Assembly (NCBI GenBank): GCA_038886195.1
Contig: JAVZYK010000001.1
Span: 80,339-144,338 of the forward strand
Origin: Candidatus Pacearchaeota archaeon
GTDB taxonomy: Archaea; Nanobdellota; Nanobdellia; Pacearchaeales; UBA284
Length of the DNA: 64,000 nt
Direction: 5' to 3'
The translations under genes and the position numbers were made by a program. Under the pieces are notes generated by a model. It was not told where the DNA came from. It did not search any database and saw nothing but the letters and a program-made list of their open reading frames with translations. Numbering within the stretch: the first letter of the stretch is position 1; each line of letters begins with the position of its first letter. Shown one piece after another: positions 10,706-44,855 of the stretch.

Positions 10706-10743
10706 ATAAAAAATGAAAAATAAAGAAATGCAAAAATAATAAA

Positions 10744-11313: not shown

Positions 11314-11406
11314 GAAAAATCAATCAAAGCAAATAACAAAAAGCAAATAAAACATAAAATTTTATAAAGGCAAAAATCTTAAAAGTTAAGGAAAAAAGAA
11401 GGGAAA

Positions 11407-12819
11407 ATGGTGAAAAGAGGAGCGTTGTTATTAGCTGGCATTATAATCTTCTTTATTTTTGCAAGCTCATTAACATCTGCAGCAAGTTGTTATTGTGATT
11501 CTTGTGCAGATTGTACAAGTAAATTGAATAATTCTTCTTGCACAGAAGTAAAATTAACAGCAAACATAATAAACTTTGTAGGCACTTGCATTGATAATCC
11601 TGCAGGTTTCAATAACAAAGTGTTTGATTGCCAAGGATATAAAATAGATGGAGATGATCTGAGATATAATTATGGAATTTACTTAAATGGCAAGCAAAAC
11701 AATACAATAAAAAATTGTGTAATTACTGACTTTTATGTTGGAATTTATTTATGGTTTTCATGGGAAAACACCCTAACAAACAACACTGCAAGCTCAAATA
11801 ATTTTGGAATTTATTTATATTATTCATCAGACAACGAGATAACAAATGCAAATGTAAGAGAAAATGAGGAGATTGGAATTGTGTTATCCTCTACTAATAA
11901 TACTAAAATTAAAAATTGTATAATTAAAGGAAATCCTTGCGATAAGTGTATATTTGTCAAAGGAAGTGGGGCGCGTCATAACTATATTACTAAAACTGAA
12001 ATTCATTCTTGTGCAACAGGAATTTTAATTTATGATTATGGTATAGGTTCTTATGCTAGTTTAACAGTTAATCAAAGCTATATTCACGACAATACTGACC
12101 AAGGCATTAGGATTTATGGCGGTAATGAAATGGGTTTAGTTTTAATAGATAGCGTAATAACTGCCAACGGAAAAGGAGTGTATTTGGATCATCGATGGGG
12201 AGCACATAAAGATCCTAAAGGATTTCTTTACAATTCCACAATCTGTAATAATACACTTGATTTGCAAATAGATACTAAAGATAATTATGATAAAGATTGT
12301 GCTGGAAGCTATGCTAAGACAATTGGTGGCACTAACGCTAATTGTCCTAATCTTAATAATTTTTGTCCAACCTTTCCTTCTTCAGGTTGTGTTTGGCAAG
12401 GAGTTTGTTCAAGATACGTACCGGCAAAAGGTGCTTCTAGCACTTTTGAATTCCCTAACATAAATTTTTGTCCTGCAATTCCAGACGAGTGCAAAAATCA
12501 ATCACCGGATCACATTGTTTGCCGCAATAACGAGGCTTATAATTGTCAGGGTTGCGGCGGATGGTATCGTGATGTTAGTTTAGATTATATATGTAAACCA
12601 AATTATTGTTTAGGGAACTATTCGACGGGATGGGTAAAATATAGAAATCATGAGAATTGCACTTCAATTAACGATTTTTATTCGGGCTGTGTAATTGACA
12701 TTACTGGAGATGGGATTTATGATAAACTTTGTTGTCCTGTTTATGATAGTCTAAATTACAATATAGCTTTGTTTGAGCCAACATCTGATATGTACTCCTT
12801 TTGTCGAAGTGTAAAATGA
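11407..12819 (+). CDS. secreted cysteine-rich protein with right-handed parallel beta-helix (PbH1/NosD-like) repeats
   Basis: 470 aa. The N-terminus MVKRGALLLAGIIIFFIFA could be either a Sec or a class III signal peptide (KRG|A). Repeated NNxxGIYL and NxIxNC rungs, many Cys. Paralogous to the partial ORF at 62904..64000 (shared DC[QN]GYKI[DQ]GDD...KNC[VI] block). Confidence 0.65.
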   Translation: MVKRGALLLAGIIIFFIFASSLTSAASCYCDSCADCTSKLNNSSCTEVKLTANIINFVGTCIDNPAGFNNKVFDCQGYKIDGDDLRYNYGIYLNGKQNNTIKNCVITDFYVGIYLWFSWENTLTNNTASSNNFGIYLYYSSDNEITNANVRENEEIGIVLSSTNNTKIKNCIIKGNPCDKCIFVKGSGARHNYITKTEIHSCATGILIYDYGIGSYASLTVNQSYIHDNTDQGIRIYGGNEMGLVLIDSVITANGKGVYLDHRWGAHKDPKGFLYNSTICNNTLDLQIDTKDNYDKDCAGSYAKTIGGTNANCPNLNNFCPTFPSSGCVWQGVCSRYVPAKGASSTFEFPNINFCPAIPDECKNQSPDHIVCRNNEAYNCQGCGGWYRDVSLDYICKPNYCLGNYSTGWVKYRNHENCTSINDFYSGCVIDITGDGIYDKLCCPVYDSLNYNIALFEPTSDMYSFCRSVK

Positions 12820-15800
12820 GAAATATGAAAAAAATAAAAATAGAGAGAAAAATAAAAACAGAGGAATTATTTATGCTAACTTTTTTCGTGATAGCTTTTT
12901 TATTTGTCTCTTCGTTTTCAAAAGCCAATGGACTACTACACTGTACTGGTTGGGGTTTTCGGAATATTACAAATTATTGGGGCTGTTGTAATGGTAGTCA
13001 TTTTGATGGCACTAAAGGAATAGCGATGCCTTATGTGATGCAACAAACAGTTTTTTACAGCTACCATTGTTGTGGAGATAATGATGGCGTTTGTCCAGAA
13101 GATTTTAATAGCTCGCATGCTGGCGGGCGTATAAGTTGTGCTCCTAATGGAGACCCTGATTGTGGCTCGCTGCCGCTCCAATGCAACCTAACTTCTGCGA
13201 CGATAACTCCGAACTGTAGGGGCATTCCTGGGAACACTCAGGGATGTGATGTTGGAGATAATATAACTGTGACAGCGACCTTTGCGGGAAATTGTCAGGA
13301 AGTTAAGGCTCTTGAAACTAAGATTAAAGATACAAATTGTGAATTGTCTTTAGAAATTCCTTGCACAGTTAGTAGCAGTGGAAGCTGTAGTGGCGTTGCT
13401 ACTATTCGAGTAGTGCCAGATGGTTGTGAAAATAAAATAGTATATTTAAGAAATGCGACTGCATGGAATGAAACTCTTGCCGGTGCAGGACAAGTGAGGA
13501 TGGTTGTTACTTATAACGACACCCAACAACATCTTAACGGAGGTTTCAAGTTCTCTGAAAAAATTTTAAAGTTTATTGATTTGATTATATGGCCGCCGAG
13601 CGCGCTGATCCAAGTTGGAAACTTGTTTGAATGGAACTTGACAGCAGTGTTTTTCAATCAAACGAGCGGTGAGAATGTCACAAAGTATGTTGCAAATGAC
13701 GACCCTTACTCGCAGTTTTTTTATTCTAATCCGAATGTCGCGCATCATCCTGGCTCGCCTTATCCTAACAGAATCTCCAAAGGATTCTCTGCAGGCGAAA
13801 CCAATGTTGTAGGAACGTGGCCATGGCCTTGGAATTACAAACAAGACACTGCCCTATTAAAAGTTATCAATCCAACAGGTTGTGTCATATCTTTAGCAGC
13901 AATAATACCTTACTGCAGGCCTGGCGGCTGTAATGTTAGCGACAAGATCAATTTGAATGTAAAAGTCAATAGCCCTAGCTGTGATCCTGATTCAAATCCT
14001 TCAAGAATAGTTATGAAAGGACATGATTCTTCGCTTTTGTGCAATGTGGAGCTGAGTGTTGATGGAATCTATTGCGATGGCCTTGGCAACTGCAACAAAA
14101 ATTATACTATAAATTCAATTTCTGATGATTGTGCTGGCAAGACTGTCATGATTAAAGTGACTGAACTTTATAATGCAACCGGTCCTTTAGCGAGCTTGCA
14201 GGGCAACTTCGGCTCATTTCAGTTTTGGGCGCCGGCGCCTGAAGAACCGAGCTATATTACATTATGGCCTAGAGATTGGCATGCTAAAGTTGGCGATAGT
14301 GTTTCTTATGACGTTTGGGCCCATTATCCTACCAATCCTCCTAAAAATGTAACAACTGATGAATATACAAATTATAGTTCGAGCAATAACGTGGTTGCTT
14401 ATCAAATTAGTCCTAAAAACGTGTTTTATGGCAACAGTACTGGCACTACAACAATAACTGCAAGATATCCTAAAGGCTATAATTATGCTAAAGAAAATAG
14501 CACTTCACTTTATGTTTATCCTCATACTGATTGCGAGATTTTGGATGCTAATATGAGTTTTAATTGTGATGATAGTATTGGCGGCATTCCTCAATGTAAT
14601 AATGGCGACACAATTGATTTAGGAGTTGTTGTTAATCAACAATGTTATAATTTGAATATTGCAAAAATACAAATGAGAGCTCATGAAAAGTTTAATCAAG
14701 CAAATCATGGCTCTTGCAGTTTTGATATGAATGCGAGCTTTACTCAACAAGCCTGTTCCTATAATGATGGAAATTATTTCTGCCATGGAACATGGACTGT
14801 TGGAGTTCCTCCAAGTTGTCAAGGTAAAAACGTTATTGTTGATGGAGTTATAGTTTATAATTATTCAGGTAATTTTTTAGATTCAAGACAAGGCTATATA
14901 GGAAACTTTAGTTTTGTTGAAACGCCTCAGTCATTAAGAGCGATTATTGTTACTCCAAATGAAGGCGCAACATTTAATCTCTCTGAAAACCCTGTTGCTA
15001 ATTTTACACAAGCAAGCATTGGCCAGATAACTAATTGGACATGGCTTTATAGAAAGATAACAATTCCACAATCACCTTGGACAGTTCTTAGATCAACTTC
15101 AAACCCGAATGAAGCAAACATAACTAATTACGATTTTAGTTATTATGGTTGGAAAGGGGGCAATTATGATATAAACTTGACTGTTAGCAATTTAAGCTTA
15201 AGTGATGATGATATTGTTGAGATAACTTTAATTGACAACTATACGCCAATTGCCAATATAACTCGACCTTTGTGGCATGTCATACTTTATAACAATAGCG
15301 TAGTTTTTGATTCTGAATGCTTTGATCCTAACAATAATCCTTTAAACGTTACATGGTATTTTGATGATAATACTAATGTTAGCGGTCCTTATTTACAATT
15401 CAAAAATGTAACTCATATTTTTGGCCAAGCAAAACCCAATTTCTTTAGAGCATGGCTTAATGTGACTGATGGTCAAAATTCGTCAGTAGATTATGTTGAA
15501 TTTAAAATAGCTTATTGTTATCATAACAACAATTATTATTTTGCAGGTTCTTGTATTGGGCAAAATAATTTGTATTGTAATAAGAATGATTGTAATGAAT
15601 TTGGTGAATGCAATGTTGTTGCTGATTGTAGAAAATGTAATAACTGTCCAAGCAGCTATTATTGTGATGGGATGACTGGCAATTGTAGTCAAGGACCAGG
15701 ACCACAAGGCTGTCAACAATATGATCAGCAACAGTGTAACGCTCAGATAGGTTGTTATTGGGACGCTTGTAAAGCTTGTAATGATCCACAAAAACCAATT

Positions 15801-16292
15801 CGCTCTTGTTCTGATTATACTAGACCAAGTGCTTGTAATAATGACAGTACTAATTGTCAAGTAGGAATGCCTAATCATGGTTTAGGAACAGAAATTTGTG
15901 ATACATTGATTGAAACTCCTCCTGGAAGTGGCAATTATTCTTTAGTTAATAATTGTCACTGTGAATGGAATTCAAATATTAATAATTGTACTTTAGCTTA
16001 TACTTTAATTCCACAAAACCAAAATGGCGGAGGCCAGCCGCAACCAGAAGATTGCCAGTATCAAATAATAGCAGAAGATTGTGGAAGCTGTCAAGTTAGT
16101 GGAAGGGAGGGAAGAAATGTTAGTTACAAAAGAGTTTTTGGCGATCCTAATGTTTGTGTTGATCGTTCATGGTGTCAGCCTTGTGGCTTGTTGTTCAGAC
16201 CATTACCATTCTTTGAATGGTGGCAAGCCATTGTTGTAGTTGGATTGGTTGTTGTAGTTTATGCCTTTATGCTTAGAAGAAAATATTTATAA
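12816..16292 (+). CDS. giant cysteine-rich surface protein (about 1158 aa) with N-terminal signal peptide and C-terminal TM anchor
   Basis: The track start at 12801 is a TTG. ATG at 12816 overlaps the upstream stop (ATGA), with a further ATG at 12825. Signal peptide LFMLTFFVIAFLFVSSFSKANG, more than 70 Cys, many N-x-S/T sequons. The C-terminal WWQAIVVVGLVVVVYAFMLRRKYL is a single TM with a short basic tail. No enzymatic motif. Confidence 0.7.
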   Translation: MRNMKKIKIERKIKTEELFMLTFFVIAFLFVSSFSKANGLLHCTGWGFRNITNYWGCCNGSHFDGTKGIAMPYVMQQTVFYSYHCCGDNDGVCPEDFNSSHAGGRISCAPNGDPDCGSLPLQCNLTSATITPNCRGIPGNTQGCDVGDNITVTATFAGNCQEVKALETKIKDTNCELSLEIPCTVSSSGSCSGVATIRVVPDGCENKIVYLRNATAWNETLAGAGQVRMVVTYNDTQQHLNGGFKFSEKILKFIDLIIWPPSALIQVGNLFEWNLTAVFFNQTSGENVTKYVANDDPYSQFFYSNPNVAHHPGSPYPNRISKGFSAGETNVVGTWPWPWNYKQDTALLKVINPTGCVISLAAIIPYCRPGGCNVSDKINLNVKVNSPSCDPDSNPSRIVMKGHDSSLLCNVELSVDGIYCDGLGNCNKNYTINSISDDCAGKTVMIKVTELYNATGPLASLQGNFGSFQFWAPAPEEPSYITLWPRDWHAKVGDSVSYDVWAHYPTNPPKNVTTDEYTNYSSSNNVVAYQISPKNVFYGNSTGTTTITARYPKGYNYAKENSTSLYVYPHTDCEILDANMSFNCDDSIGGIPQCNNGDTIDLGVVVNQQCYNLNIAKIQMRAHEKFNQANHGSCSFDMNASFTQQACSYNDGNYFCHGTWTVGVPPSCQGKNVIVDGVIVYNYSGNFLDSRQGYIGNFSFVETPQSLRAIIVTPNEGATFNLSENPVANFTQASIGQITNWTWLYRKITIPQSPWTVLRSTSNPNEANITNYDFSYYGWKGGNYDINLTVSNLSLSDDDIVEITLIDNYTPIANITRPLWHVILYNNSVVFDSECFDPNNNPLNVTWYFDDNTNVSGPYLQFKNVTHIFGQAKPNFFRAWLNVTDGQNSSVDYVEFKIAYCYHNNNYYFAGSCIGQNNLYCNKNDCNEFGECNVVADCRKCNNCPSSYYCDGMTGNCSQGPGPQGCQQYDQQQCNAQIGCYWDACKACNDPQKPIRSCSDYTRPSACNNDSTNCQVGMPNHGLGTEICDTLIETPPGSGNYSLVNNCHCEWNSNINNCTLAYTLIPQNQNGGGQPQPEDCQYQIIAEDCGSCQVSGREGRNVSYKRVFGDPNVCVDRSWCQPCGLLFRPLPFFEWWQAIVVVGLVVVVYAFMLRRKYL

Positions 16293-16344
16293 AAAAGACT
16301 AACTTGACTGGGTAAAAAGAGGTTAATTAAAAACGAGAAAAAAA

Positions 16345-19095
16345 ATGAAAAGAAAAGAGACAAGTATGGCAATGGCAGCAATTGTGCTGTCACTTTTTAT
16401 TTTATTGTTTTCATTTAGCTTTAGTTCTGCAACTGTTACGCCAGGAACGCCATTTTTTAATTTATCTCAAACAAGTTTTGGGCCAGGGCAAGTTATTGAA
16501 GGTTTCTTAAATTTTTCTTTAACCGATCATCCTGGCAATACAATTGTTAGAGCAACTATAAATCCTGGAGCTGTGACAAAAGAAACTACTCTTTTGAATT
16601 TCTTGAAAAATGCAACCGTGACTTTCAATTGTAATCCAACCGACTGTAATATAACTTATAATGCAACTAATGCTGGAACAACAAAAACAATATCTTTAAG
16701 TCAAGAAACTGAAGCTTATTATAGTTTGGTCGCTTTTGGTTCGAATGTTCAAGTTCAGAATTTAAGTTTTACAATGCAAGGTTCTAGCAATGCGCAGCCT
16801 GTTTGTTATGAAACTCCTTTTAAAGTTGATTTGCTTGATGATGGTATTATTGATTTTGAATATAAGGAAGTTTCGGGCTATTGTCCTCAGCGTGCGAGTA
16901 ATTGTTTTGATCCCAGTGTGGCAACACAAGTTGGTTTGTTAAGCACTACGCCTTCCTGTCAGAAAATATGGCTCAACAAGACTGGTAAGGTTAATGTTAG
17001 TGCTGTGTTAAAGCGAGAGGGCGAGCCTCAAAACCACGATATTGAATTTTTAATTTATGATTCTAATGGATTATTAAAAGGTAGCTGCAGTGTTAGTGGC
17101 TGGGAAGTTCAAGAAAATTTTGCTCCTGTAAGCTGTATTATAGGCGAAGATGAATACGGACAGCCAACCGGTTTTTATATTAGTAAAGCAGATAATTATT
17201 TTGTCTGTGTTAAGGCCTTAGGCAATATTTATTCAATAAAAAAGGAATCTCAAGGAGAGATTTGTGGTTTTTATGGTAATCCGCCTTCATCTGTTTTTAC
17301 AGAAGATTATGCAATTTATGTTTCAGAAGGTAAGTTTGCACCTTTCAATGGCGAGGCTTTTTTCAATGAAACTACAGCAATAGGAACACAAAATTTAATT
17401 GCCGCAATTCAAAGCTATCTTCAAACAAAATATAGCAATAATTGTTCTAGTGGTTGTGTAATTCCAATGAGATTTATTTCATTAGCAAGCCAACAAGTTA
17501 CACTTAATAATTTAAATTTTATTTATGCTCCAGGCCCTGGGCAAAGCGGTACAATCGACCATTATTTTTATGATCTAACTGTTGTTCCGCCCAAACTTAA
17601 TATGACTCAACAACTGGTTCAATTGCGAGCATTAAATACTACTGCACCACAACAACAAGGAAGCTATAGCATTAGTGTAATGATCATTGGCGGGCCTTCA
17701 GGGTCAGCGACTTTTAGAGTTGAGCCGGTTCCTCAAGTTCATAGCGTTTATCCTTTAACAGTTATTCCAGGTCAATCAACAACGTTCCATGTTGTAGCAA
17801 CAGCTCCTGCTGGAAGACAAATTGTAAGTTACATTTGGAATTGGGGTGATGGGTCTGGTGAAATAACTACTACTGAGCCAACTGCTTCACACATTTATAA
17901 TCAAGGAAGCTATACTTTAACTGTGAAAGTCCAAGATAATGCTTCGCTTGTCGGAAGCAAAAGTTTCACTATTGTTGCCAATATAACAAAGGAATTGTTA
18001 AACACAACGATAAATTCATTACTCGCTCGAGTTAATGCAATAACTTTACAGTTCAATGCTTTAGAGCCATGGTATAGAGACGCATTGGGTTTAAACTTAT
18101 CAAATATTAATTCAACTTTGCTAACTTTCAAAACACAATTGTCAACAGCAACTCAAACACAATTGGCCTCGATGTTTGAAACAGTTAATCAATACAAGAA
18201 TCAAGTTCCTTTAAATATAACTGACTCGTTGATCTTGAGAGAGTCGCCTTATTTCGTAAACTTAGAAAATATAAATCCTCAGTATATTTCTGAAATCACT
18301 GATGAAACTTATAGCTCGAACTTGGAAGAGCAATATAAAAATACCATTGTTTTATGGCAAGAAGAAAATTTAGACTTAACTCTTAGCGGTCAAATCAAAA
18401 CATTTGTTTATGAAACAACTTCTGAAGACAAGTTAACTGTTGTTAATATAAAACTTGCTCCTAAGACAAGTTTAAACGAAGTTTATCTTGTTTTCTCTTT
18501 GCCGAGTGGCGTTAGTTATAGTAATGTTAAAATTAAGCAAGGAAATTTTGAAACAAGCGACTTGAATGATGCGATTGGCTTTACATTTTCGGATTTAAGC
18601 TCGAGTGAAACTATAAGTTTGGCATTGCCAGGCAAGCACGATTTTTCACAATTAACATTTTATGCTTCTCCAAAGCTTGCAGAATTGAAAGTTGAAAGTG
18701 GCACGATTATGCCTGGAAAAGAAAAAAAGGCGCCTTGGGGTTTGGCTATATTTTTAATGATTGTGATCGTTTTGGTTGTCATTGCTGTTTTGTGGTTTTT
18801 ATGGCGTGGTTACAGTGAAAAGCTTGAAAAAAAATTGTTTAAGAGCCCTATGGATTTATATAATTTAATGAGTTTTATTTCAGGAGCTAAGGCAAAAGGT
18901 TTGAGAAAAGATGAAATTGAAGAACAACTTTTGAAAGCAGGATGGAATAAACAACAAATTAATTACGCATGGAAAAAATTAGAAAAGCAAGAAAAAGCAA
19001 AAGGCAAGAAGGGAAAAGAAAGAGAGATTCGACCATTGGGCGTGGGCGAAGAAGTTTTTCCTTATAAAAGCATTTACAAAAGAATTAAGCACTAG
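16345..19095 (+). CDS. large secreted/surface protein (916 aa) with C-terminal TM anchor and cytoplasmic tail
   Basis: Sec-type signal peptide (MAMAAIVLSLFILLFSFSFSSA). Thr/Ser/Asn-rich with many sequons. C-terminal TM LAIFLMIVIVLVVIAVLWFLW followed by an approximately 90 aa K/E-rich tail. Confidence 0.7.
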   Translation: MKRKETSMAMAAIVLSLFILLFSFSFSSATVTPGTPFFNLSQTSFGPGQVIEGFLNFSLTDHPGNTIVRATINPGAVTKETTLLNFLKNATVTFNCNPTDCNITYNATNAGTTKTISLSQETEAYYSLVAFGSNVQVQNLSFTMQGSSNAQPVCYETPFKVDLLDDGIIDFEYKEVSGYCPQRASNCFDPSVATQVGLLSTTPSCQKIWLNKTGKVNVSAVLKREGEPQNHDIEFLIYDSNGLLKGSCSVSGWEVQENFAPVSCIIGEDEYGQPTGFYISKADNYFVCVKALGNIYSIKKESQGEICGFYGNPPSSVFTEDYAIYVSEGKFAPFNGEAFFNETTAIGTQNLIAAIQSYLQTKYSNNCSSGCVIPMRFISLASQQVTLNNLNFIYAPGPGQSGTIDHYFYDLTVVPPKLNMTQQLVQLRALNTTAPQQQGSYSISVMIIGGPSGSATFRVEPVPQVHSVYPLTVIPGQSTTFHVVATAPAGRQIVSYIWNWGDGSGEITTTEPTASHIYNQGSYTLTVKVQDNASLVGSKSFTIVANITKELLNTTINSLLARVNAITLQFNALEPWYRDALGLNLSNINSTLLTFKTQLSTATQTQLASMFETVNQYKNQVPLNITDSLILRESPYFVNLENINPQYISEITDETYSSNLEEQYKNTIVLWQEENLDLTLSGQIKTFVYETTSEDKLTVVNIKLAPKTSLNEVYLVFSLPSGVSYSNVKIKQGNFETSDLNDAIGFTFSDLSSSETISLALPGKHDFSQLTFYASPKLAELKVESGTIMPGKEKKAPWGLAIFLMIVIVLVVIAVLWFLWRGYSEKLEKKLFKSPMDLYNLMSFISGAKAKGLRKDEIEEQLLKAGWNKQQINYAWKKLEKQEKAKGKKGKEREIRPLGVGEEVFPYKSIYKRIKH

Positions 19096-21436
19096 GCTTC
19101 GGAACTTTTGGGGCTGGAGACAATTTTTTCTTTACTATTGTTTTAACAGCTGTTTTTTGTGGCATTGCCGGTTTTGCCATTGCCATGGGTTTGGGCATTG
19201 GCTTTATAGGAGCTTGAGCTGTTTGAGGCATTGTTCTAGTAGTAATTGATGGCAATCCTCTTGGCGGCATGCCTCTAGGTGGAATTCCAAAACCATATTC
19301 AATTGTTGGAGGAGCCGCTTTTGGCTTGCCTTTAATTTTTATTTTGCCTGTTTTGATAAGATAGAACAGTGCTAAAATAATTACGACGATAATTATTATA
19401 ATTAAAATTGTTGTTGGAAAACCACCTTTTTTCTTGCATTCGCCCAAGCAGCATCTTGAAACATCAGATGCTTGTTTAATTGTGCCTTTACAAGTCATGC
19501 TAGCATTACATGGCACACCTCTTTGTGCTGAACATGATTTTAAACATTGACCTTCACAACATTTCAATGCATCGCTTGTTTCATAACTATTGCCACCAAC
19601 ACAATTTTCATCTGTTTCACATTTATTATAATTACAAGTTTTAGGAATGCACCTGCCGCCTTGTATGCAACAAGTGGTTAAGCCATTGGTGTCAGAGGCA
19701 TTTACAAGAACGCCATCTTTACAATCTTCATCACTAGAACAAATTTCGCCACCTTTTTGCTGGCAAGTTTGTGGTGCTTCAGTACAATAGGCTGTTTGAC
19801 AACAATATAAAGTATCGCTTGCTTGAATCCATTTATCTTGCAAGCAAGAATAGCCAGAATTAGGATCACAATAGGAGCCATTAGCTTGCTGGCAAGTTAA
19901 TGTTGCTGTCGAGCAAATTCCTTTACAACAATAAGGCGAGTCACTGGAATAGATGAAAGGAACTATTCTTCCTTGACTTGTACATTCTTGGCCAAGTCCA
20001 CAAACTGTGCCGCCTATTTCGCTAACACATAATGAAATGCTATAGTTTTTACAACAAACTCCGCTTTGGCAACTATAAGGAACTTGGGCTTCTGTGTTTG
20101 AGCAACTTTGTTTGCATTCTCCATATTTCATTTCACAATTAAAGCTTGAAGTTAAATTACAGCACTCTAAAGTTTCAGAACAATAATAGCTTAAAATTGA
20201 TCCATTTAAAACACTACAGTTTGAGACACAATTGAAGCCATAGATTTCACATTCGGTGCGCCATTCGAAATTTGGCCAAACTCCATAAAGCAAAATGGCT
20301 GTTTCTCTAATGTTATCACAACCAGGACATTCCCATGAACCGGCATTAGTTCCAGTTTTTATCTGTTGCTGTAATAATTTTTCTTTAAGTTTTGTTATAT
20401 TTGCATTGATTGTAGAGCCGGTAATTGAAGCAAGGCCCGTGTCATGATATTTATTGTATGCTGTATTGTTAGCAACTATTAAGCCATCTGTACCTTGCAA
20501 TAAAGCAATTGTTTCAGCATAGTTTTGCTGAGAAGTTAATTTATAAAGAATTGCTTCTGGAAGGAATTTTTTATTTTCATTTGCTTTCATAACAAGATAA
20601 GGAATAAAAATTCTTGAAATACTGGGTTGATTAGCAAAAGCATAAGCTGTCCATAAAGTCGCTTCATAATCACAATTGCCCATATTAGCAATACATTTTG
20701 TTATTAGCTTTAATGAAATCACCTCTAAAGGTTGAGCACTTAAGGTTGAACTTACGACATAATATTCTTTTTGTACTCCTGTTTTTTCAAAAAGAAAATT
20801 TCCCATAAAACTGTCGTTACAAGTTATATTGAATTCTTTTTCAAAACATTGTTGGCTCGGGTTTAATTGAAGCCAATACGTTGCATTACTAAAACATTCT
20901 GTGCTACTTAAACTAGAAACTTGGCCTTTTTTATCAAACTCGACAGAAATTTCTGTTGTATCATAGCGGATCATACAGAGTAGATTATTGTTTTGTGGCT
21001 GTGTTAACTGCAAAAGCCAATTACCTCCGATTGCTATTGTAGGTGTAATTGTATTGTTCAGAAGCCATTCGCTTGCTTTGCTTGAATCTTTATTTACAGA
21101 ATCAAGAACAATTTTGGCAAGAGCTGTGTCGAAGGCATTACAACCTGAAGAGGGCCAGCAAGTTCCATTATTATAAGATTTTTGTAATAAAGATCTTATA
21201 GAAGCATCGATTTGATTTTGTGTCAGCTTTTCTTTTAAAGCAAGAAAAGAAAAAACATGTTGTTGTAAATTTAAATTTTGCCATCTTCCGACTGCTTTGC
21301 CTTGAAGCCATGTGTAAGCTTTCTTTATTTGTAAGGTTTCGTCTTGCTGCTGAGCTAAAACTGAAATAGAAAAAATAAAAAAAGAGATGAGAATTATTGC
21401 TATAAAAATTAATGAAATTCCTCTTTTCGAAACCAT
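19085..21436 (-). CDS. large cysteine-rich surface protein (783 aa) with possible class III signal peptide, C-terminal TM and Pro-rich tail
   Basis: N-terminus MVSKRGISLIFIAIILISFFIF. The C-terminal third has tandem Cys-rich modules (xSDxxxCCxGxC repeats). TM (TTILIIIIIVVIILALFYLI) followed by a Pro/Met/Lys-rich tail (PPRGMPPRGLP...KPMPKPMAMAKPAMP). The 3' end overlaps the 3' end of the convergent 916-aa gene by 11 nt. Confidence 0.7.
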   Translation of the reverse strand: MVSKRGISLIFIAIILISFFIFSISVLAQQQDETLQIKKAYTWLQGKAVGRWQNLNLQQHVFSFLALKEKLTQNQIDASIRSLLQKSYNNGTCWPSSGCNAFDTALAKIVLDSVNKDSSKASEWLLNNTITPTIAIGGNWLLQLTQPQNNNLLCMIRYDTTEISVEFDKKGQVSSLSSTECFSNATYWLQLNPSQQCFEKEFNITCNDSFMGNFLFEKTGVQKEYYVVSSTLSAQPLEVISLKLITKCIANMGNCDYEATLWTAYAFANQPSISRIFIPYLVMKANENKKFLPEAILYKLTSQQNYAETIALLQGTDGLIVANNTAYNKYHDTGLASITGSTINANITKLKEKLLQQQIKTGTNAGSWECPGCDNIRETAILLYGVWPNFEWRTECEIYGFNCVSNCSVLNGSILSYYCSETLECCNLTSSFNCEMKYGECKQSCSNTEAQVPYSCQSGVCCKNYSISLCVSEIGGTVCGLGQECTSQGRIVPFIYSSDSPYCCKGICSTATLTCQQANGSYCDPNSGYSCLQDKWIQASDTLYCCQTAYCTEAPQTCQQKGGEICSSDEDCKDGVLVNASDTNGLTTCCIQGGRCIPKTCNYNKCETDENCVGGNSYETSDALKCCEGQCLKSCSAQRGVPCNASMTCKGTIKQASDVSRCCLGECKKKGGFPTTILIIIIIVVIILALFYLIKTGKIKIKGKPKAAPPTIEYGFGIPPRGMPPRGLPSITTRTMPQTAQAPIKPMPKPMAMAKPAMPQKTAVKTIVKKKLSPAPKVPKPSA

Positions 21437-21505
21437 GTTTTTTTAAAGTTATTAAGCTTTAAAAAACTTTTTAAATATCAAAAGCTTGGGATATTGACGA
21501 AAAAA

Positions 21506-22303
21506 ATGTTAAGCAAAAGAGGCAATAATCAAGACAAAAAAGGCCAAGTCACTTTGTTTATAATTATTGCTATTGTCATTGTGGCCATAATTATTCTTGC
21601 CTTGATTCTTGTGCCGAAACTTTTTCCTAAAAAAATTCCAGCTGCGAAAATAACTGATCCTGAAGCTTACATTCAAGATTGTATAAATCTTGCGCTAGAG
21701 CCCATGGTTGAAACTCTCGCAAGCCAAGGAGGTTATCTTGAATTAGGCAATTGTATTTTTTATAAAAATGTTTGCAGACATTATTTATGTTATGTTACAA
21801 TTCCTTACACAGCCTGTGTTAATCAAGAACCATTACTTAAAGAAAAAATTGAATCAATTTTAAAACAAAAATTGCAGCAAGATAATGTTGTTTCGAATTG
21901 CATTAATAAATTTCAAGAAGCTGCCTCGAAACAAGGCTATGATGTTTCAACATGCAGCTCGCCAACATTTTCAGTAAATTTGACAGAAGGCAAAGTTAAT
22001 GTGCCAATTAAATGTGAAATGACTTTAGTTAAGGGCGAAGAAGTCAAGAGAATAGAAAAAATTAATCCTTATTTGCAATGGCCTTTATATGAGTTTGTGC
22101 TGCTTGCTAAAGAAATCATAAATGACGAGATTACAAACACTGATTTTGATCAAGTTGCTTATATGTTAAGACATTATTGGGTTGAAATTGAAAAGTTCAG
22201 AACAAGCGATGATTCAAAAATTTATACTCTTCGCGAGAGAGCGAGTGGCAAAGAATTTGTCTTTGCTGTGAGAAACTATGTATTGCCGCCTGGACTGATG
22301 TAA
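21506..22303 (+). CDS. pilin-like protein with archaeal class III (prepilin-type) signal peptide
   Basis: The track start at 21494 is a TTG. The first ATG at 21506 gives MLSKRGNNQDKKGQVTLFIIIAIVIVAIIILALILV, i.e. a charged leader, then KG|Q, then a 24-residue hydrophobic stretch, which is the FlaK/PibD substrate pattern. About 265 aa, with a Cys-containing globular domain after the hydrophobic segment. Confidence 0.55.
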   Translation: MLSKRGNNQDKKGQVTLFIIIAIVIVAIIILALILVPKLFPKKIPAAKITDPEAYIQDCINLALEPMVETLASQGGYLELGNCIFYKNVCRHYLCYVTIPYTACVNQEPLLKEKIESILKQKLQQDNVVSNCINKFQEAASKQGYDVSTCSSPTFSVNLTEGKVNVPIKCEMTLVKGEEVKRIEKINPYLQWPLYEFVLLAKEIINDEITNTDFDQVAYMLRHYWVEIEKFRTSDDSKIYTLRERASGKEFVFAVRNYVLPPGLM

Positions 22304-22336
22304 AATGAAAAATAAAAAAAAGAAAAAGAAAACAAC

Positions 22337-25300
22337 ATGTGGAAAGGAAAAACTCTAAAAATGATAAAGAATAAAAAGAAGATAAAAGAAATTGATTTAA
22401 TAATTTCATTATTTCTTATAGTTTTGACAATTTTGATGCCAATAACCTTTACAGCTTTACAACCTGAAATTGATCTTGTTAAAGGAGAGATAAAACCAAA
22501 TCCTGTTATTGATTCTTTTGCTTCTGTTTTTTCAAAAGTCATTGGATTTTTTGATGTTGTGCCGAGTGTTATGGCACAAGATCTGGGTTGTTGTGAAATT
22601 ATGAAAAATGGAGCAAAATGTCAAATTAGTACTGAAGATGAATGTCAATCACAATGGCATCAAGGCCAGAGTTGTGATACAATTTGTCAAATTGGTTGTT
22701 GTATTGATTCACAAGGCTTTTGTTCTAAGCAAGCGATTTCAACACAATGTCTTGTTCCGCCTGCATTAAAATTTGTTCAAAATGATCCAAATTGTCAACA
22801 AGACATTCTATGTAAAATGGGTTGTTGTACTGTTGGTTATCAAAAAATTTGGACAACTAACTTAACTTGTTCTAATATTTATCATGGTGTCTGGGACGGG
22901 AATGTTCCTGACGAATTGACATGCATTCAACAAGCTTCTCAAGAACAAAGAGGTTGTTGCAGAAGTTATGCTGGCTGTGAATACATTACGGGAGCTGAAT
23001 GTTCAAGCAAATCAGGAAGTTTCTTTCCTAATATGAAATGTTATAGTGGCGTTCCTGGATGCAATTGCCAATTAAATTCTGAAGGAAAATGTGTTGAAGG
23101 ATTTCCTGATTTATACAAAGCCGATAGTTGCGGAAATGCTTATATTGATGAAATTAAAGAGCAATGCTCTGCAAACGGAGGATTTTGCAATGCAAGTTCA
23201 AACAAATGTCAATCTGGAACCTGTTTTGATGTTTATGATAATTACAACAAAAACAATGGAGATTTTACAGCGCTGCCTGGAAGACATGGACAATTAAGAG
23301 AGAGCGGGGAGTCATGGTGTGTTTATGACAGGCCGGATTTGGTTTGGGGAAATGGGACAGAGCCAGCCGGTTCAAGGCATTGGAGATGTTACTGTGTGAA
23401 TGGTATTGAAACATGCGAACCTGCTTCTGATTACAGACAGGAGATATGCGCTGAGACCTTGTTTGATATAAATAAAGGGAAATTAGAAGATATAAATTAT
23501 ACACAAAGATATTCTAGTTCAAATTATAGAAGTGTAGCGGTTTTTGTTGGCAATCCATGGAGAACGTGTATTTTACTTAATGACGAGGAAAAATGCAATG
23601 CAAATCCTGGCTGTTTTTGGATTACTGGTTTTGCGCCCCTTATAGGGAAAAACGCAGTAGATATCTTTAGGATTGAAGATGGCAAAGAGAAGGGGTGGGC
23701 CGGAGTAAGGGCGGATAGTTTAGCAGAAATCGACAGCGGAGACCCACAATTGGGCACTGTAGTTGGGCCGCCTAGATGCCTTCCAAAAATTCCACCAGGG
23801 CTTGATGTTGGTTTTTTTACTCAATTCCAAAACAAAGAGACTGTCTGCAAGCTGGGGAGTTATTCTTGCACAGTCAAAGACAGACTTTCAGGTGGAGATG
23901 AAAATCCAGAATGTGATGACAATGAATGGATGGAGTTGATGGCTCACAGATGCAGAGCAATTGCAGATTGTGGTGTTTGGTTTAATTATTTACATGCTCC
24001 TTCCGCGAGTCCTCCAGTATACACTGCAACGCAAGATGGAATTCTTATAGCTGAAGTGACTCCTGAATATGATTCCGAAGGAAACGTTAGTGCAAAAGAG
24101 ATTGAAATAAACTATAAACTGTTAGATAATAATTTTACAAAGTTTGAAGAATATAGGGAGATAATAAATGATCCTTCCAAAACTTTTGATATGAAAAGGG
24201 AAAAGGGGGGAGAAGGCGGTTGGGGTTGGGCATTGTTGGTTGATGTTATAGGTTACCTGGTGGCGGCGTTATTTCCAGGAGAGTCGGGTTGGGGTTTGGG
24301 TTTAAGTTTTGAGAAGTTCCGCTTGGTTGGTGCTTGGTGGAGCGGAGAAGAAGTTGGTTTACTTAATGCATACACAGGTATCGCTATTATCTGTTTCGTT
24401 ATTGCGTGGGTTATTCCGGGCCCTCAGTGGGCTAAAGAAACTTTCAGAACATTGGGTTATGGCTTTGCAGCCAAAGGCATTGCAACAGCGCTTGGAGCTT
24501 CAACTCCAGTAGGATGGATTATAGGGGCAGTAGCACTGATTACTTATGCTTTGTTCTTCGCGGTTTGGGATGTTGATCATATGGTTGTTGAATGCTATCC
24601 TTATATGCCGCCTGTGGGCGGAGATGATTGCGAAAAATGCAATGATGATCCAATGAGGCCTTGTTCTAAGTACAGATGCGAATCACTTGGAACTGCTTGT
24701 GTTTGGAAGGGCACAACAGCTGATGGAGTTCCTTGCGAACAGAGCCCTGAACAAGAGTGCGGAATTTGCCAGAAAGAAAATAATGATGGAGCACCTCCTT
24801 TGATTACAAAAGTCTCTGTAAAAGAAGAAGGTTATAGTGTTTCGCCTTCACAGCCAGGAATGCCTCCATCAACAATAGTTATTTCAAAAAATGGCGGCAT
24901 TGATCCCTGGAGTTCTTTCACCGTTACACTTGAGTTTAACGAAAGAGCAGTTTGTAAATGGTATAATAAGCACACTTTGAGCTTCAGTGACATGCCTCCG
25001 GTTTGGTTTGATAGTAATACTTGGAAATACAGTCAGACAATGACAATCCCTGTAGGACAATTGCTTCAAGGCTATAATACTGTTCAGATTTATTTGAGAT
25101 GCGCCGATAGCTATATGAATGCTAATATTGGTGAATATATTTTGCAATTTAACGTTTCAACAACTGACTTAACACCGCCGGTTGTTTTGGGCACAGATAG
25201 AGATTATTATAATAAATTTTCATATGGCGTGACTGAATTGCCTTTATCGATTTATGTTAATGAGATGGCTAAATGCAGATGGGCGAAGCAAGATGTTGAC

Positions 25301-26047
25301 TATAGCTTGATGGGCGGCGAGTGCAGTACAACATTAACACAAACTGGCTTTAAGTGTAACACAACTTTAACTGGCTTACAATCAGAGCCGCCTGGAATTG
25401 CAAATACCTTTTATATTAGATGCAATGACACTTCAGGCAATGTTATGCAGCAATCTTATCAATTAATTCTTTATCCTACTTTGCCTTTAAAAATTATCAA
25501 TATTATACCAGAAAACGGCGCTCACGTTAAAGGTTGTGAGATTAGTGGCGTGGAGCTTGAAGTTGAAACAGCTGAAGGAGCCGAGAATGGCAAGGCAATA
25601 TGCTACTGGCAAAATGGCACTCAATGGCAAAGATTTACTGTTACGAATGATGTTGTTCATTTAACTAATTTATCTGCTGTGAGCCAGACTGTAAATATTA
25701 AATGTTATGATTCTGCATTGAATGTTGCTCAGAATTCAACAAGCTTTACAGTTGAGGCAGATCAAACACCGCCAACCATAACAAGAATCTTTAAAGATGG
25801 CTCGCAACTTGTTATAAGGACTGATGAAGATGCTACATGTGCTTATCATTATGCTTGGGGACAGAAAATTAATAATTGTAATTTTGTTGCTAACAATACA
25901 ATGCAAGCAAGAAAATTTACTACAACTGGCGGAACTGAACATAGGACAGAATGGGACGACGAGCCTTGGTATGTTAAGTGTTATGACAGTTGTGGCAATG
26001 GAATAAACAATCCTTGCACAATAGTTTATCCTTCTGAACTTGAATAA
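22337..26047 (+). CDS. giant cysteine-rich membrane protein (1236 aa) with a central multi-TM segment
   Basis: N-terminal signal anchor, then an approximately 600 aa Cys-rich region with repeated GCC/CxxxxxxC modules. A central hydrophobic block (GWGWALLVDVIGYLVAALF..., IAIICFVIAWVIPG, IIGAVALITYALFFAVW) predicts 3-4 TM helices. A further approximately 480 aa Cys-containing domain follows. Confidence 0.7.
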   Translation: MWKGKTLKMIKNKKKIKEIDLIISLFLIVLTILMPITFTALQPEIDLVKGEIKPNPVIDSFASVFSKVIGFFDVVPSVMAQDLGCCEIMKNGAKCQISTEDECQSQWHQGQSCDTICQIGCCIDSQGFCSKQAISTQCLVPPALKFVQNDPNCQQDILCKMGCCTVGYQKIWTTNLTCSNIYHGVWDGNVPDELTCIQQASQEQRGCCRSYAGCEYITGAECSSKSGSFFPNMKCYSGVPGCNCQLNSEGKCVEGFPDLYKADSCGNAYIDEIKEQCSANGGFCNASSNKCQSGTCFDVYDNYNKNNGDFTALPGRHGQLRESGESWCVYDRPDLVWGNGTEPAGSRHWRCYCVNGIETCEPASDYRQEICAETLFDINKGKLEDINYTQRYSSSNYRSVAVFVGNPWRTCILLNDEEKCNANPGCFWITGFAPLIGKNAVDIFRIEDGKEKGWAGVRADSLAEIDSGDPQLGTVVGPPRCLPKIPPGLDVGFFTQFQNKETVCKLGSYSCTVKDRLSGGDENPECDDNEWMELMAHRCRAIADCGVWFNYLHAPSASPPVYTATQDGILIAEVTPEYDSEGNVSAKEIEINYKLLDNNFTKFEEYREIINDPSKTFDMKREKGGEGGWGWALLVDVIGYLVAALFPGESGWGLGLSFEKFRLVGAWWSGEEVGLLNAYTGIAIICFVIAWVIPGPQWAKETFRTLGYGFAAKGIATALGASTPVGWIIGAVALITYALFFAVWDVDHMVVECYPYMPPVGGDDCEKCNDDPMRPCSKYRCESLGTACVWKGTTADGVPCEQSPEQECGICQKENNDGAPPLITKVSVKEEGYSVSPSQPGMPPSTIVISKNGGIDPWSSFTVTLEFNERAVCKWYNKHTLSFSDMPPVWFDSNTWKYSQTMTIPVGQLLQGYNTVQIYLRCADSYMNANIGEYILQFNVSTTDLTPPVVLGTDRDYYNKFSYGVTELPLSIYVNEMAKCRWAKQDVDYSLMGGECSTTLTQTGFKCNTTLTGLQSEPPGIANTFYIRCNDTSGNVMQQSYQLILYPTLPLKIINIIPENGAHVKGCEISGVELEVETAEGAENGKAICYWQNGTQWQRFTVTNDVVHLTNLSAVSQTVNIKCYDSALNVAQNSTSFTVEADQTPPTITRIFKDGSQLVIRTDEDATCAYHYAWGQKINNCNFVANNTMQARKFTTTGGTEHRTEWDDEPWYVKCYDSCGNGINNPCTIVYPSELE

Positions 26048-26798: not shown

Positions 26799-26800
26799 AA

Positions 26801-27187: not shown

Positions 27188-27219
27188 AAAAGAGAAAAGA
27201 ATAAATACTATGAATTTTT

Positions 27220-42528: not shown

Positions 42529-43374
42529 TTATGCTAGAGCTCTAGTTGCTGTAACTATTAGATATGTTATTATAAGCAAAATTGTGCTGTGTTTTATTCC
42601 ATATTTTATTGAACCTTCGCTGAGTTTGCCAATTACTAAGCCGGCAAACAGAGCTTGCATTAACAAAAGAATGAAAAAAGAACGTTCAATAAGTTCTTGG
42701 GAGGCTTGTTGTCCGAAAGAAATTCCTATGCCTTCTACTTTAGCACTTTCTAGGCCTGTGGTGCCAAGGGCTCCTGTAATCATGGGTATGAATTTTAATT
42801 CTACAAAAAGCATGATGATAATAAAAATAAAGAAAATTATGTAGCCCTGTACAACCATACTATAAACTCTAGAAGCCCTTTCTTTTTTTAAATCTTCAAT
42901 TTCTGTAACATTCTTTACTACCGCAGTAAGAACATTTCCTATTTCGCCACCAGAAGTTTCAGCTTCTATGATAAGTTCAATACTCCTCGATACAACTTTG
43001 TTTTTAACTTCAGATGCAAAAGTTCTTAATGCCTGTTTTAAAGGAATGGCTAACAAGATTTGATTTGCAAGTTTTTTAATATGGGGTGTTAAACTTCCAT
43101 AATCTTTTGCAGATACATGAACTATGCTTCTAGAGATGGAGCTTCCTGCTTTAACGCTTTCTACTAAATCTCGAACAAATTCAAGGAACATCTCTTCTTT
43201 TTCTTTTTCACGACCAGTTTCGGTAATTATAGATATTAAGAATGGAATGACTGCAATCACTACTGCCAAACCTATTAAAAAGAGCAAGAGTTTAGTTTTA
43301 GCAAAAAAAATTAAACTCAGGATTATTAAAACAATTCCTATTACAATGCTTATTATTTGTATTTTTTTTACCAT
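42529..43374 (-). CDS. type II secretion system F-domain membrane protein (TadC/FlaJ-like), short form
   Basis: 281 aa, 3-4 TM with a central soluble T2SSF-like helical domain. Adjacent to a second TadC-like gene and a secretion ATPase. Confidence 0.6.
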   Translation of the reverse strand: MVKKIQIISIVIGIVLIILSLIFFAKTKLLLFLIGLAVVIAVIPFLISIITETGREKEKEEMFLEFVRDLVESVKAGSSISRSIVHVSAKDYGSLTPHIKKLANQILLAIPLKQALRTFASEVKNKVVSRSIELIIEAETSGGEIGNVLTAVVKNVTEIEDLKKERASRVYSMVVQGYIIFFIFIIIMLFVELKFIPMITGALGTTGLESAKVEGIGISFGQQASQELIERSFFILLLMQALFAGLVIGKLSEGSIKYGIKHSTILLIITYLIVTATRALA

Positions 43375-43395
43375 TTTTGATTCTTTATTTAATTT

Positions 43396-44670
43396 TTAAA
43401 CTTCTGGTTGAGTCATTTTTAGAAAAACTAAAAATGCTATATTTAATACTGCAATTGCAACAACGCCTAAATTAGCCAATACCGAAATGTTCATCGCTAA
43501 GAAAGTAGTTCCAAGGACAGACATTATTGCTAGGATCAACATGAAAATTAAAGGTGCAGCTATTAGTAACGCAGTGTAAATGTCAGAGTACATTCCTATG
43601 ACAGCAGTATAACGTTCTCTGCTTAATTTATAATCCAACAACAAGTTTTTTGCCTTTTCATTTAAATAAGTAGTTAAGTCACCTCCTGTTGTTATTGTTG
43701 TGGCCATGCCATTAAGTAAATCGCTTAATTTTCTACTTGAAGTTATCTTAGCTACATTTCTTAATGAAGTAGTTAAATCATAGCCGTAGATATTTATTTG
43801 GTTAACTATTTTTCTTATTTCAACGCTAAACGCTCTATATTCTTTAGTTAAAGCTATGATCGAGAATATTTTTGAAGGTTCAACCTTGCTAGAAGCAATT
43901 GCTGCCATATGAGAGACAGCAAAAGGCAATTCAGCTTCTATTTTTTTTCTTGTTGATGATGCAACATTTGCAGGATAACTTAAGGCAAGGAAAAATACTA
44001 TTGAAGTTACAATTAGGGCTATAACAAGATTTCTTATTACCGCAACAATTGTTCCTTCTAGAGCAAATGCGAGTGCTAAAGCCATAGTAACTGAAAGGAT
44101 TAAAGTAATGAATGTTATAAAAACAATTAATGAAATGTAGGCTGTTAGCATATATGGCATATTTGCTTTTTTCAAGTCATTGCCAAGGCTTTTGAATAAT
44201 TTTCTTTTAGAAAGTTTATAGGAAAATTCTCCGAAGATTTTGCTGGCAAATATAGCAAAAGCAGAAGGTTTTGTAATGATGAGATATTCTTCTTTTTCTT
44301 CAACTTTCTTTTTAAGTCTTGCTTTCATATCTTTAATCGCTTTTTCACTTAAGTTCAATTCTTCCATAAATTTTTTCTTGCTCTCGTCTTCTATATAAAC
44401 GGGCCCGGTTGCTGTAACTATCCTTTGAATTTTTAGAGGCAAACTTTCTTTTTTTTCAGCTTTTACAATTTCAAACCTTAAATTTGGTAAAAAAGCCGTT
44501 ATTGAATTATTGATTAACATTATTTGTTTTATTAAAGATTGAGAAGTTTCTTCTAGGATTTTTTTTTCATCTTCTTTTGCTGTTTCGTATGCAAGAGCTA
44601 TTGAGTTGAGTTCTTCTAGTATATTTCTTATTTTTTGAATATTTGCTCTAACTTTATCTATTTCTTCCAT
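43396..44670 (-). CDS. type II secretion system F-domain membrane protein (TadC/FlaJ-like), long form
   Basis: 424 aa. An N-terminal soluble coiled region, then a polytopic domain with paired T2SSF-like repeats. Immediately downstream of the ATPase and the 58-aa ORF. Confidence 0.6.
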   Translation of the reverse strand: MEEIDKVRANIQKIRNILEELNSIALAYETAKEDEKKILEETSQSLIKQIMLINNSITAFLPNLRFEIVKAEKKESLPLKIQRIVTATGPVYIEDESKKKFMEELNLSEKAIKDMKARLKKKVEEKEEYLIITKPSAFAIFASKIFGEFSYKLSKRKLFKSLGNDLKKANMPYMLTAYISLIVFITFITLILSVTMALALAFALEGTIVAVIRNLVIALIVTSIVFFLALSYPANVASSTRKKIEAELPFAVSHMAAIASSKVEPSKIFSIIALTKEYRAFSVEIRKIVNQINIYGYDLTTSLRNVAKITSSRKLSDLLNGMATTITTGGDLTTYLNEKAKNLLLDYKLSRERYTAVIGMYSDIYTALLIAAPLIFMLILAIMSVLGTTFLAMNISVLANLGVVAIAVLNIAFLVFLKMTQPEV

Positions 44671-44678
44671 TTTTTTAT

Positions 44679-44855
44679 TTAACTTAAACTTTTTATTTCT
44701 GCATTTATTTCATTATTTATTTTTTCAAGTTCCTGTCTCAGCTCATTAAATTTCTTTTCATCTCCTAGTTGTTTTGATTGTTCTAAATCAAATAATATTT
44801 GTTCTGCAGAAACAACAAGTTGCATTAAAAAAGTTATTTTTTGTAAAGAGATCAT
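44679..44855 (-). CDS. 58-aa coiled-coil ORF translationally coupled to the secretion ATPase
   Basis: Absent from the track (under 60 aa). Its ATG overlaps the ATPase TGA stop (ATGA). It translates to MISLQKITFLMQLVVSAEQILFDLEQSKQLGDEKKFNELRQELEKINNEINAEIKSLS, with no TM. Its stop lies 8 nt before the TadC ATG. Confidence 0.4.
   Translation of the reverse strand: MISLQKITFLMQLVVSAEQILFDLEQSKQLGDEKKFNELRQELEKINNEINAEIKSLS

Follow-up and report, generated by a model that had tools for sequence, protein, structure and literature searches.

Which of the large surface proteins encoded by a pacearchaeon carry class III, or prepilin-type, signal peptides? The question is raised by a stretch of 64,000 nucleotides from Candidatus Pacearchaeota contig JAVZYK010000001.1 (hereafter the window), for which an initial annotation had proposed such signals on three large proteins, of 265, 783, and 470 amino acids, and a role for these proteins as pilus-associated adhesins or tip proteins. 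Our analysis leads us to favor a narrower reading, to which we would give a probability of roughly 55%, in which the 265-residue protein (p265) is the sole credible class III substrate of the three and a pilin-like partner of the giant protein encoded downstream of it (p1236). That p265 is a pilus-associated adhesin or tip protein is possible. The features on which the argument turns are listed here, with an arrow (↓) marking predicted cleavage and TM standing for transmembrane.

21506..22303, plus strand: p265, a 265-aa pilin-like protein in which a class III-type N-terminus is joined by a linker to an alpha/beta globular domain
21506..21544, plus strand: predicted p265 leader M1-G13 (MLSKRGNNQDKKG), with a predicted prepilin-peptidase site at G13↓Q14
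21545..21613, plus strand: hydrophobic H-domain of p265, Q14-V36 (QVTLFIIIAIVIVAIIILALILV), followed by Pro37
22337..26047, plus strand: p1236, a 1236-aa Cys-rich membrane protein downstream of p265, without a Pfam or NCBIfam match
19085..21436, minus strand: p783, a 783-aa type I membrane surface protein, without a Pfam or NCBIfam match
21353..21436, minus strand: predicted Sec signal of p783, M1-A28, with a signal peptidase I (SPase I) site at VLA↓QQQ placed by orthologue comparison
11407..12819, plus strand: 470-aa secreted protein with a Cys-rich region and a parallel beta-helix (NosD-like; Pfam Beta_helix, NosD)
11407..11487, plus strand: predicted Sec signal of the 470-aa protein, M1-S27, with a site at SAA↓S or AAS↓C

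Three N-termini read against their relatives

The coordinates and N-terminal sequences of these three open reading frames (ORFs) are as the initial annotation gave them. All three N-termini fit a FlaFind-type pattern, [KRDE][GA][ALIFQMVED][ILMVTAS]x3 followed by a hydrophobic stretch, which no other real gene and no short ORF in the window fits. The pattern is retained by 54 of the 60 members of the p265 family and, when genomes were scanned for the motif, by 112 of the 114 proteins among the matches listed, whereas it is kept by five of 28 relatives of p783 and by none of 32 relatives of the 470-aa protein. The proposal of class III signals on three large proteins thus holds up for p265, whose site is conserved, but not for the other two, in which the pattern is lost among relatives and AxA-like sites are found.

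The p265 site, K-K-G↓Q-VTLFIIIAIVIVA, forms the most conserved part of the family, for which we found 60 homologues. Gln14 is invariant (57 relatives). Conservation of Lys11 is 90% or more in both alignments, as is that of Gly13 in the 31-sequence alignment, the few exceptions seen being Ala; Thr16 and Phe18 reach the same level in relatives with as little as 21-25% overall identity, and Ile20 reaches it in relatives that share 21-30%. Mean pairwise identity within the family drops from 57% across positions -3 to +23 to 32% for the globular domain and 14% for the linker. Leaders range from 4 to 34 residues in length among the matches listed (114 superfamily proteins), and across the superfamily they end in two basic residues and Gly, rarely Ala. 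With a basic leader ending in [KR]-[GA] and a conserved Gln at +1 that opens a conserved helix of about 20 residues, p265 has the features expected of a class III substrate. The K-G↓Q site named by the initial annotation is therefore retained, on the strength of the basic leader, the invariant Gln, and the best-conserved helix of the family, and the data support a signal of the Gln(+1) subtype of class III, with cleavage predicted just before this Gln.

A different fate for the same N-terminus would be that of an ordinary Sec signal, cut by SPase I after the hydrophobic segment to leave a soluble, secreted globular domain. A crude test for AxA-like sites is indeed positive close to where the hydrophobic stretch ends in 33 of 60 family members, but it is non-discriminating for p265 because it also matches inside any Ala-, Val-, or Leu-rich helix; conservation profiles, and not this test, were used to judge the protein. 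The segment is 22-23 residues long and is the best-conserved part of p265, the opposite of what is found in Sec h-regions, and the residue that follows it is Pro in all but one of the close relatives inspected (11 of 12, with Arg in the remaining one). Pro at +1 blocks SPase I, and no residues suited to this enzyme were evident after the helix in the 12 relatives. We consider an ordinary Sec signal on p265 very improbable.

Among described systems, the p265 site is of the same kind as those tabulated for EppA-dependent pilins of Methanococcus maripaludis, for which FlaFind predicts KG↓QV, KG↓QI, KG↓QL, and RA↓QI (PMC4371748). EppA needs Gln at +1, and according to the same review Gln at this position has been confirmed by mass spectrometry (PMC4371748). 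Like the Epd pilins of M. maripaludis, p265 has a short basic leader ending in the K-G/R-A manner, Gln at +1, and a hydrophobic helix directly after, and, as is often the case for Epd pilins, it is encoded away from assembly genes that comprise an ATPase and two platform genes. Unlike p265 with its 265 residues, the Epd pilins are much smaller, the major pilins having about 70 aa (PMC4371748; PMC4858521), and p265 further departs from them in the linker between its helix and globular domain, in a fold without a solved relative, and in that no EppA gene was found in the loci searched. The residue at +5 differs as well, since Glu is reported there for EppA substrates (PMC4371748; PMC4858521) and p265 has Phe (Q-V-T-L-F).

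A second likeness is to archaellins. In a comparison of the family profile with all PDB sequences, the top two matches were archaellins aligned at the site (KkGQV...TLFIIIAIvIVA in p265 against ERGQVgigTLIVFIAMVLVA, dots marking gap positions), neither of them significant (E 0.27 and 1.4), so that the match is a supporting hint at most. The archaellins in PDB 9eq7_A and 9v96_A, which are FlaK/PibD substrates, carry RG↓QVGIGTLIVFIAMVLVA where p265 carries KG↓QV...TLFIIIAIVIVA. The likeness is confined to the N-terminus, and unlike archaellins p265 comes without archaellum accessory genes or an archaellin domain. One homologue from JGI (P0046) carries the source label 'UPF0333 family'.

In p783, the picture is different. 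Many of its 28 full-length relatives start with MEKKS or MKKQN, without Gly or Ala after the basic residues and without K-R-G, and conservation in the family is lowest in the h-region, at 25% identity versus 44-46% in the mature protein. Sites read by eye in the orthologues are VLA↓Q, VQA↓D, VIA↓L, VSA↓Q, and ISA↓Q, the crude AxA test is positive in 25 of 28, and the AxA-like site directly precedes a conserved E-(L/I)-T-Q-(I/V)-K-K-(A/S)-Y-x-W-L. The layout of p783 runs from the Sec signal through an (alpha/alpha)6-toroid domain and Cys-rich repeats to a C-terminal TM helix, by which the protein is anchored, and a Pro/Lys-rich tail. This cytoplasmic tail (19085-19411, minus strand) ends in the orthologues in a conserved K-K-K-L-P-x-P-P-K-P-S, which may be a docking motif.

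For the 470-aa protein, the comparison covered 32 relatives with the Cys-rich and beta-helix module at the N-terminus. In those read by eye, an AxA-like site lies 0-3 residues before the C-x-C-x-x-C-x-x-C motif, and the crude test is positive in 26 of 32. The module also occurs internally in giant proteins, without a hydrophobic helix there. Up to dozens of copies of this C-x-C-x-x-C-x-x-C and beta-helix module are found in giant proteins of up to 7434 aa elsewhere, and in the contig of a relative another NosD/beta-helix protein, of more than 1000 aa, is encoded just past the position of the window's 3' end (L010 11727-14745).

Both proteins thus lack the combination of a conserved site and H-domain without an SPase I site, and both have an n-h-c layout, small residues at -3 and -1, and a conserved mature start, from which Sec class I cleavage is predicted. 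Because their relatives are without the pattern and AxA-like sites abut the mature start, we read the two as ordinary Sec-exported surface proteins and not as class III substrates; the alternative that the initial annotation had itself named, an ordinary Sec signal with an AxA-type site, is borne out for both once relatives are considered. Its sites KRG↓I in p783 and KRG↓A in the 470-aa protein are not upheld, the former being kept in so few relatives and facing an AxA-like site before a conserved mature start, the latter being kept in none and facing AxA-like sites near the Cys motif. That all three proteins should nevertheless be class III substrates has in its favor the common fit to the pattern and the recurrence of K-R-G in the n-regions of some close p783 orthologues; the retention counts, the poorly conserved h-region and C-terminal TM anchor of p783, the AxA-like sites, and the internal copies of the 470-aa module speak against it, and we give this reading very little credence. 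Since relatives mostly do not keep it, the pattern in these two proteins is best taken as a chance fit of an ordinary signal peptide with an n-region ending in K-R-G, a local habit of this lineage's signal peptides and no mark of cleavage. Sec signals here often carry K-R-G in the n-region, and prediction from the pattern alone therefore over-calls class III signals, in this case for two of the three proteins.

The p265 superfamily and its giant partners

One genome per species of bacteria and archaea was scanned for DNA encoding [KR][KR]GQ[VI]T-x-F[IV]I. At least 120 loci carry the motif, and among the matches listed nearly all are from DPANN archaea (Pace-, Woese-, and Nanoarchaeota). The motif proteins among these matches form one BLAST cluster with two length classes, of about 250 aa and about 600-720 aa, and none that is complete is shorter than 200 aa, except for one artefact-like ORF of 50 aa. 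With the leader and helix removed, the short and long classes still align (hhalign 99.5%, E 1.6e-22, about 200 residues), and their homology thus extends beyond the N-terminus. By these alignments, p265 is a member of a DPANN-wide superfamily, which we call 'KGQVT-F'. Comparison with Pfam and NCBIfam gave no model for p265 or for long-class members, and no motif protein had a Pfam match; matches to EssA, DUF5345, and similar families were TM-helix noise, and two weak Tad (TadE/G-like) matches at E 0.03 were not usable.

The AlphaFold2 model of p265 (pLDDT 92.9) has a helix at residues 12-39, a flexible linker of low confidence, and an alpha/beta domain. The predicted fold matches no solved structure and is not pilin-like, so that the type IV pilin fold is absent from p265. 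Neither the superfamily nor its fold nor the fixed pairing of its members with giant surface proteins seems to have been described before. A DPANN-specific secreted family, cls.004306 (NEQ255), 'often next to arCOG02487', has been placed in a predicted secretion system (PMC6393860, PMC5898192); the signature genes of the predicted DPANN secretion system (MoxR ATPase, vWA protein, and DUF4350) are absent from the Pfam results for the ORFs scanned here.

The partner in the window, p1236, starts with a TM helix or signal; a first ectodomain, Cys-rich and about 600 aa long, is separated by three to four central TM helices from a second, C-terminal one. Its adjacency to p265 on the same strand recurs in the relatives' loci L002, L004, and L006. 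Among the matches listed, an ORF on the same strand lies within 200 bp downstream of 44 of 53 short-class genes, encoding a p1236 homologue in 28 cases, and of 31 of 40 long-class genes, encoding a giant secreted protein (to more than 1900 aa) in 29. In one relative, three pairs of a p265 homologue and a giant protein lie within 20 kb.

Further proteins with a similar N-terminal region were seen. At L004 20147-20692 and L101 6269-6784, proteins of about 170-180 aa carry, in their N-terminal part, K-[KR]-A-Q-(M/Q) followed by a hydrophobic helix and are encoded after a giant surface-protein gene (p1236-like in L101). They have no Pfam match, are not encoded in the window, and may be a second pilin-like partner. 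In addition, three secreted or TM proteins, with lengths of 216, 150, and 406 aa and none with a significant Pfam match, are encoded about 6-8 kb upstream of the position of the window start in a relative's contig (L008 19190-21592), and the 216-aa protein starts MAEVSNG↓FLALLIVIAIIVVVVGAW, with a pilin-like helix and no basic residue at -2.

Filament genes and the surrounding surface-protein cluster

The Tad-like ATPase with TadC-like partners that had been noted downstream is confirmed as a T2SSE-family ATPase with two single-domain T2SSF proteins at 42529-46438.

44852..46438, minus strand: assembly ATPase of archaeal type IV filaments (FlaI/GspE2/VirB11 family; Pfam T2SSE, E 4.7e-33)
44679..44855, minus strand: 58-aa ORF, located after the ATPase gene and before the first platform gene, without a family match
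42529..44670, minus strand: platform protein split over two genes, with products of 424 aa and 281 aa that have a single T2SSF domain apiece

The ATPase scores 394 bits against the NCBIfam FlaI model, below its 550-bit cut-off; its closest solved proteins are, in order, GspE2 of A. fulgidus (2oap), FlaI, and CpaF, and it is 68-93% identical to its best 120 homologues, which are from Pacearchaeota wherever a source is named. The two platform proteins are counterparts of the N- and C-terminal halves of FlaJ/ArlJ: the 424-aa protein covers positions 9-249 and the 281-aa protein positions 267-548 of the 555-position ArlJ model. The place of the 58-aa ORF is taken by one of 53-99 aa in four of four relatives (L012, L013, L134, and L135), in which the whole operon is conserved.

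The combination of one ATPase gene and two platform genes has been reported as the hallmark of system 1 (Epd-type), a system known from DPANN, and also from certain DPANN loci of subsystem 4A. The window locus has the FlaI/VirB11-family ATPase and two platform genes of system 1, an arrangement that some DPANN 4A loci share, and the likeness extends to bacterial Tad systems with their pairs of single-domain platform genes (TadB/TadC, as EpdJ/EpdK in the Epd system). Unlike these systems, the window locus is without a pilin, a prepilin peptidase, and a FleN/MinD ATPase. Neither the window nor L012 or L134 encodes a dedicated peptidase, major pilins of about 70 aa, minor pilins, or a FleN/MinD ATPase, and in the window lineage, as in L012 and L134, the genes upstream of the ATPase are for ribosomal proteins and not pilin cassettes.

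More distant DPANN relatives with an ATPase at least 70% identical to that of the window have five to six small pilin genes directly upstream of the ATPase gene (L013 6790-9953 and L135 7418-9953) and no peptidase gene there. Their pilins include a [KR]G↓Q type (MEKKG↓QFYLIAAIIIA and MIKRG↓QFYIIAAAII) beside the canonical KG↓ISPVIATILLV, which suggests indirectly that the clade has a peptidase able to cut at G↓Q. The search for such an enzyme combined Pfam comparison of every multi-TM ORF with a scan for the G-x-G-D-x-K motif and covered the window and all fetched loci, as distinct from whole genomes. The window was found, as the initial annotation had stated, to hold no Peptidase_A24-type gene and no ORF with this motif; every real multi-TM gene in it has another Pfam assignment, with the exception of one ORF whose 114 aa are too few for an A24 peptidase. 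The accompanying statement that no short pilin is visible in the window also agrees with our results, both among ORFs of at least 40 aa and, around the ATPase locus, among those of at least 35 aa.

The window is archaeal, with a G+C content of about 32%; it encodes a split RNA polymerase B subunit, EF-2, the thermosome, and the origin-associated proteins OapB and OapC, and nearly all homologues of its proteins are from Candidatus Pacearchaeota. A near-identical strain is represented by contig JAWAAA010000003.1 of assembly GCA_038885395.1 (99% identity for p783). Six genes for large secreted or membrane proteins (470, 1163, 916, 783, 265, and 1236 aa) lie at 11407-26047, with the p783 gene on the minus strand. 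Two of them have not been introduced above.

12801..19095, plus strand: two large surface proteins of 1163 aa and 916 aa, with Sec-type signals and C-terminal TM anchors

Matches to PKD-like domains are significant in the 916-aa protein and below the Pfam cut-off in the 1163-aa protein. The block from the 916-aa gene to the p1236 gene is syntenic in relatives (L002 and L006), where a different giant protein precedes it, and the convergent 916-aa (plus) and 783-aa (minus) genes overlap by 11 bp at their 3' ends (19085-19095). Directly after the cluster, an OapA-like GTPase, OapB, and OapC are encoded at 26160-27600 on the plus strand, in the same order as in L002 and L006. The position of the cluster in CP061211.1, a Pacearchaeota contig of 710 kb, is about 27-47 kb.

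The left part of the cluster differs between strains. In the near-identical strain (L008 1-2867), the window region 10172-16292, with its genes for 177-, 189-, 470-, and 1163-aa proteins, is replaced by genes for a 263-aa protein that starts MVKRGTFVFILAV and a different giant Cys-rich protein, and the region looks like a variable surface-protein cassette. Elsewhere in the window, a protein with a GGDEF diguanylate-cyclase domain (Pfam E 3e-39) is encoded at 6705-7394 on the minus strand, and a PAS-GGDEF protein and a response regulator are encoded near the pilus locus of a relative (L012 2300-3607). To our knowledge, genes for cyclic di-GMP (c-di-GMP) signaling are uncommon in archaea.

Proposed route of p265 to the cell surface and its possible place in DPANN biology

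Our results lead us to propose the following route for p265, of which we infer the cleavage, the dependence on a filament machine, and the adaptor role. The protein would be inserted in the membrane by its N-terminal hydrophobic helix, with the basic leader on the cytoplasmic side, and an aspartic prepilin peptidase encoded outside the window, one that accepts Gln at +1 as does Methanococcus EppA, would remove the 13-residue MLSKRGNNQDKKG. Gln14 would then start a hydrophobic helix of 23 residues that is retained on mature p265. This helix may simply hold the alpha/beta domain at the membrane, or the machinery encoded at 42529-46438 may take p265 into a pilus or a short pseudopilus. In either case p265 would act with p1236, probably as a pilin-like adaptor or anchor, in a manner that resembles a minor pilin and its large adhesin.

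Several observations weigh against this proposal. The conserved TM helix could equally reflect packing on the TM helices of p1236, and the modelled helix has the length of a TM segment and gives way to a linker, unlike a long alpha1 that packs against the globular domain. The search for a prepilin peptidase gave none, either in the window or in the 10-kb flanks in a close relative or in any fetched locus, including four filament loci, and no short major pilin was seen in the loci of this lineage. Moreover, the 120 superfamily loci listed hold no filament ATPase, platform, or other type IV pilus gene, and the isolated p265 N-terminus has no Pfam match at E of 10 or below, PF04021 and PF07790 included. 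Finally, the site calls rest on a FlaFind-type pattern and are not the output of the published tool.

Much of this evidence would also be accommodated if the p265 N-terminus were an uncleaved signal-anchor, derived from a pilin or archaellin as in FlaF and FlaG and conserved by packing on p1236, so that p265 would be a monotopic accessory, assembly, or anchoring factor independent of any pilus. The tight and conserved adjacency of p265 to the multi-TM p1236, the lack of linkage to filament genes and of a peptidase in the loci concerned, the TM-length helix with its flexible linker, and the fold that is not pilin-like all suit this explanation. Like FlaF/FlaG (ArlF/ArlG), p265 has an archaellin-like N-terminal hydrophobic helix ahead of an extracellular globular domain and would itself be the membrane-anchored side of a pairing with envelope proteins; FlaF and FlaG have a beta-sandwich fold and genes inside archaellum operons, and we know of no conserved K-G↓Q site in them. 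The description of archaellum stator proteins as duplicated filament subunits (bioRxiv 10.64898/2026.04.22.720090) is a further point in favor of the anchor. It leaves unexplained, however, why Gln should be invariant after Gly or Ala and two basic residues in a superfamily that otherwise shares about 20% identity, and the basic-basic-Gly/Ala-Gln sequence is the recognition pattern of Gln-specific prepilin peptidases. In addition, a crude hydropathy scan found the giant partners of the long class to be mostly without a central TM cluster, so helix-helix packing with the partner cannot be general. On balance, we regard the uncleaved anchor as possible but doubtful and favor a cleaved, pilin-like p265.

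For such a cleaved p265, large proteins with class III signals in other systems offer comparisons. Like the bindosome proteins of Sulfolobales, it is a large non-pilin with a class III signal, a retained helix before the functional domain, and a gene away from the filament locus (PMC4371748; bioRxiv 10.64898/2026.04.22.720090); unlike them, it lacks a substrate-binding-protein domain and is encoded next to a giant surface protein, with no ABC transporter nearby. With bacterial tip complexes of minor pilins or pseudopilins and a large non-pilin adhesin (FimU-PilVWX and PilY1, and GspK-GspI-GspJ), it shares the theme of a pilin-like protein that is larger than the major pilin and is paired with a very large surface protein, and an analogous arrangement of minor pilin and adhesin has been proposed for archaeal clade 1 systems (Makarova et al. 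2016). As class III signals on bindosome binding proteins and on minor pilins are already known, the kind of protein proposed here is not new.

We further speculate that the KGQVT-F superfamily and its giant partners form a DPANN-specific surface system, in which the proteins would be cut by the peptidase and lifted by the ATPase and split platform to form a pseudopilus or short fibre, whose task would be to present or anchor the giant Cys-rich adhesins with which the cell attaches to a host, and in which they would be the main clients of the filament machine where conventional pilin cassettes are absent. Taken as a whole, this extension is unlikely, and we offer it tentatively.

Our findings advise caution toward class III calls made from the pattern alone, which over-predict in a lineage whose Sec n-regions often hold K-R-G. 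If the proposal for p265 is true, a new lineage and a new gene arrangement would be added to those in which non-pilin proteins carry class III signals. Attachment to other cells is the presumed way of life of Pacearchaeota and other DPANN archaea, and the p265 family, with its pilin- or archaellin-type N-terminus, its confidently predicted fold without a solved relative, and its near-fixed place before giant surface proteins, is a concrete candidate part of their attachment apparatus.

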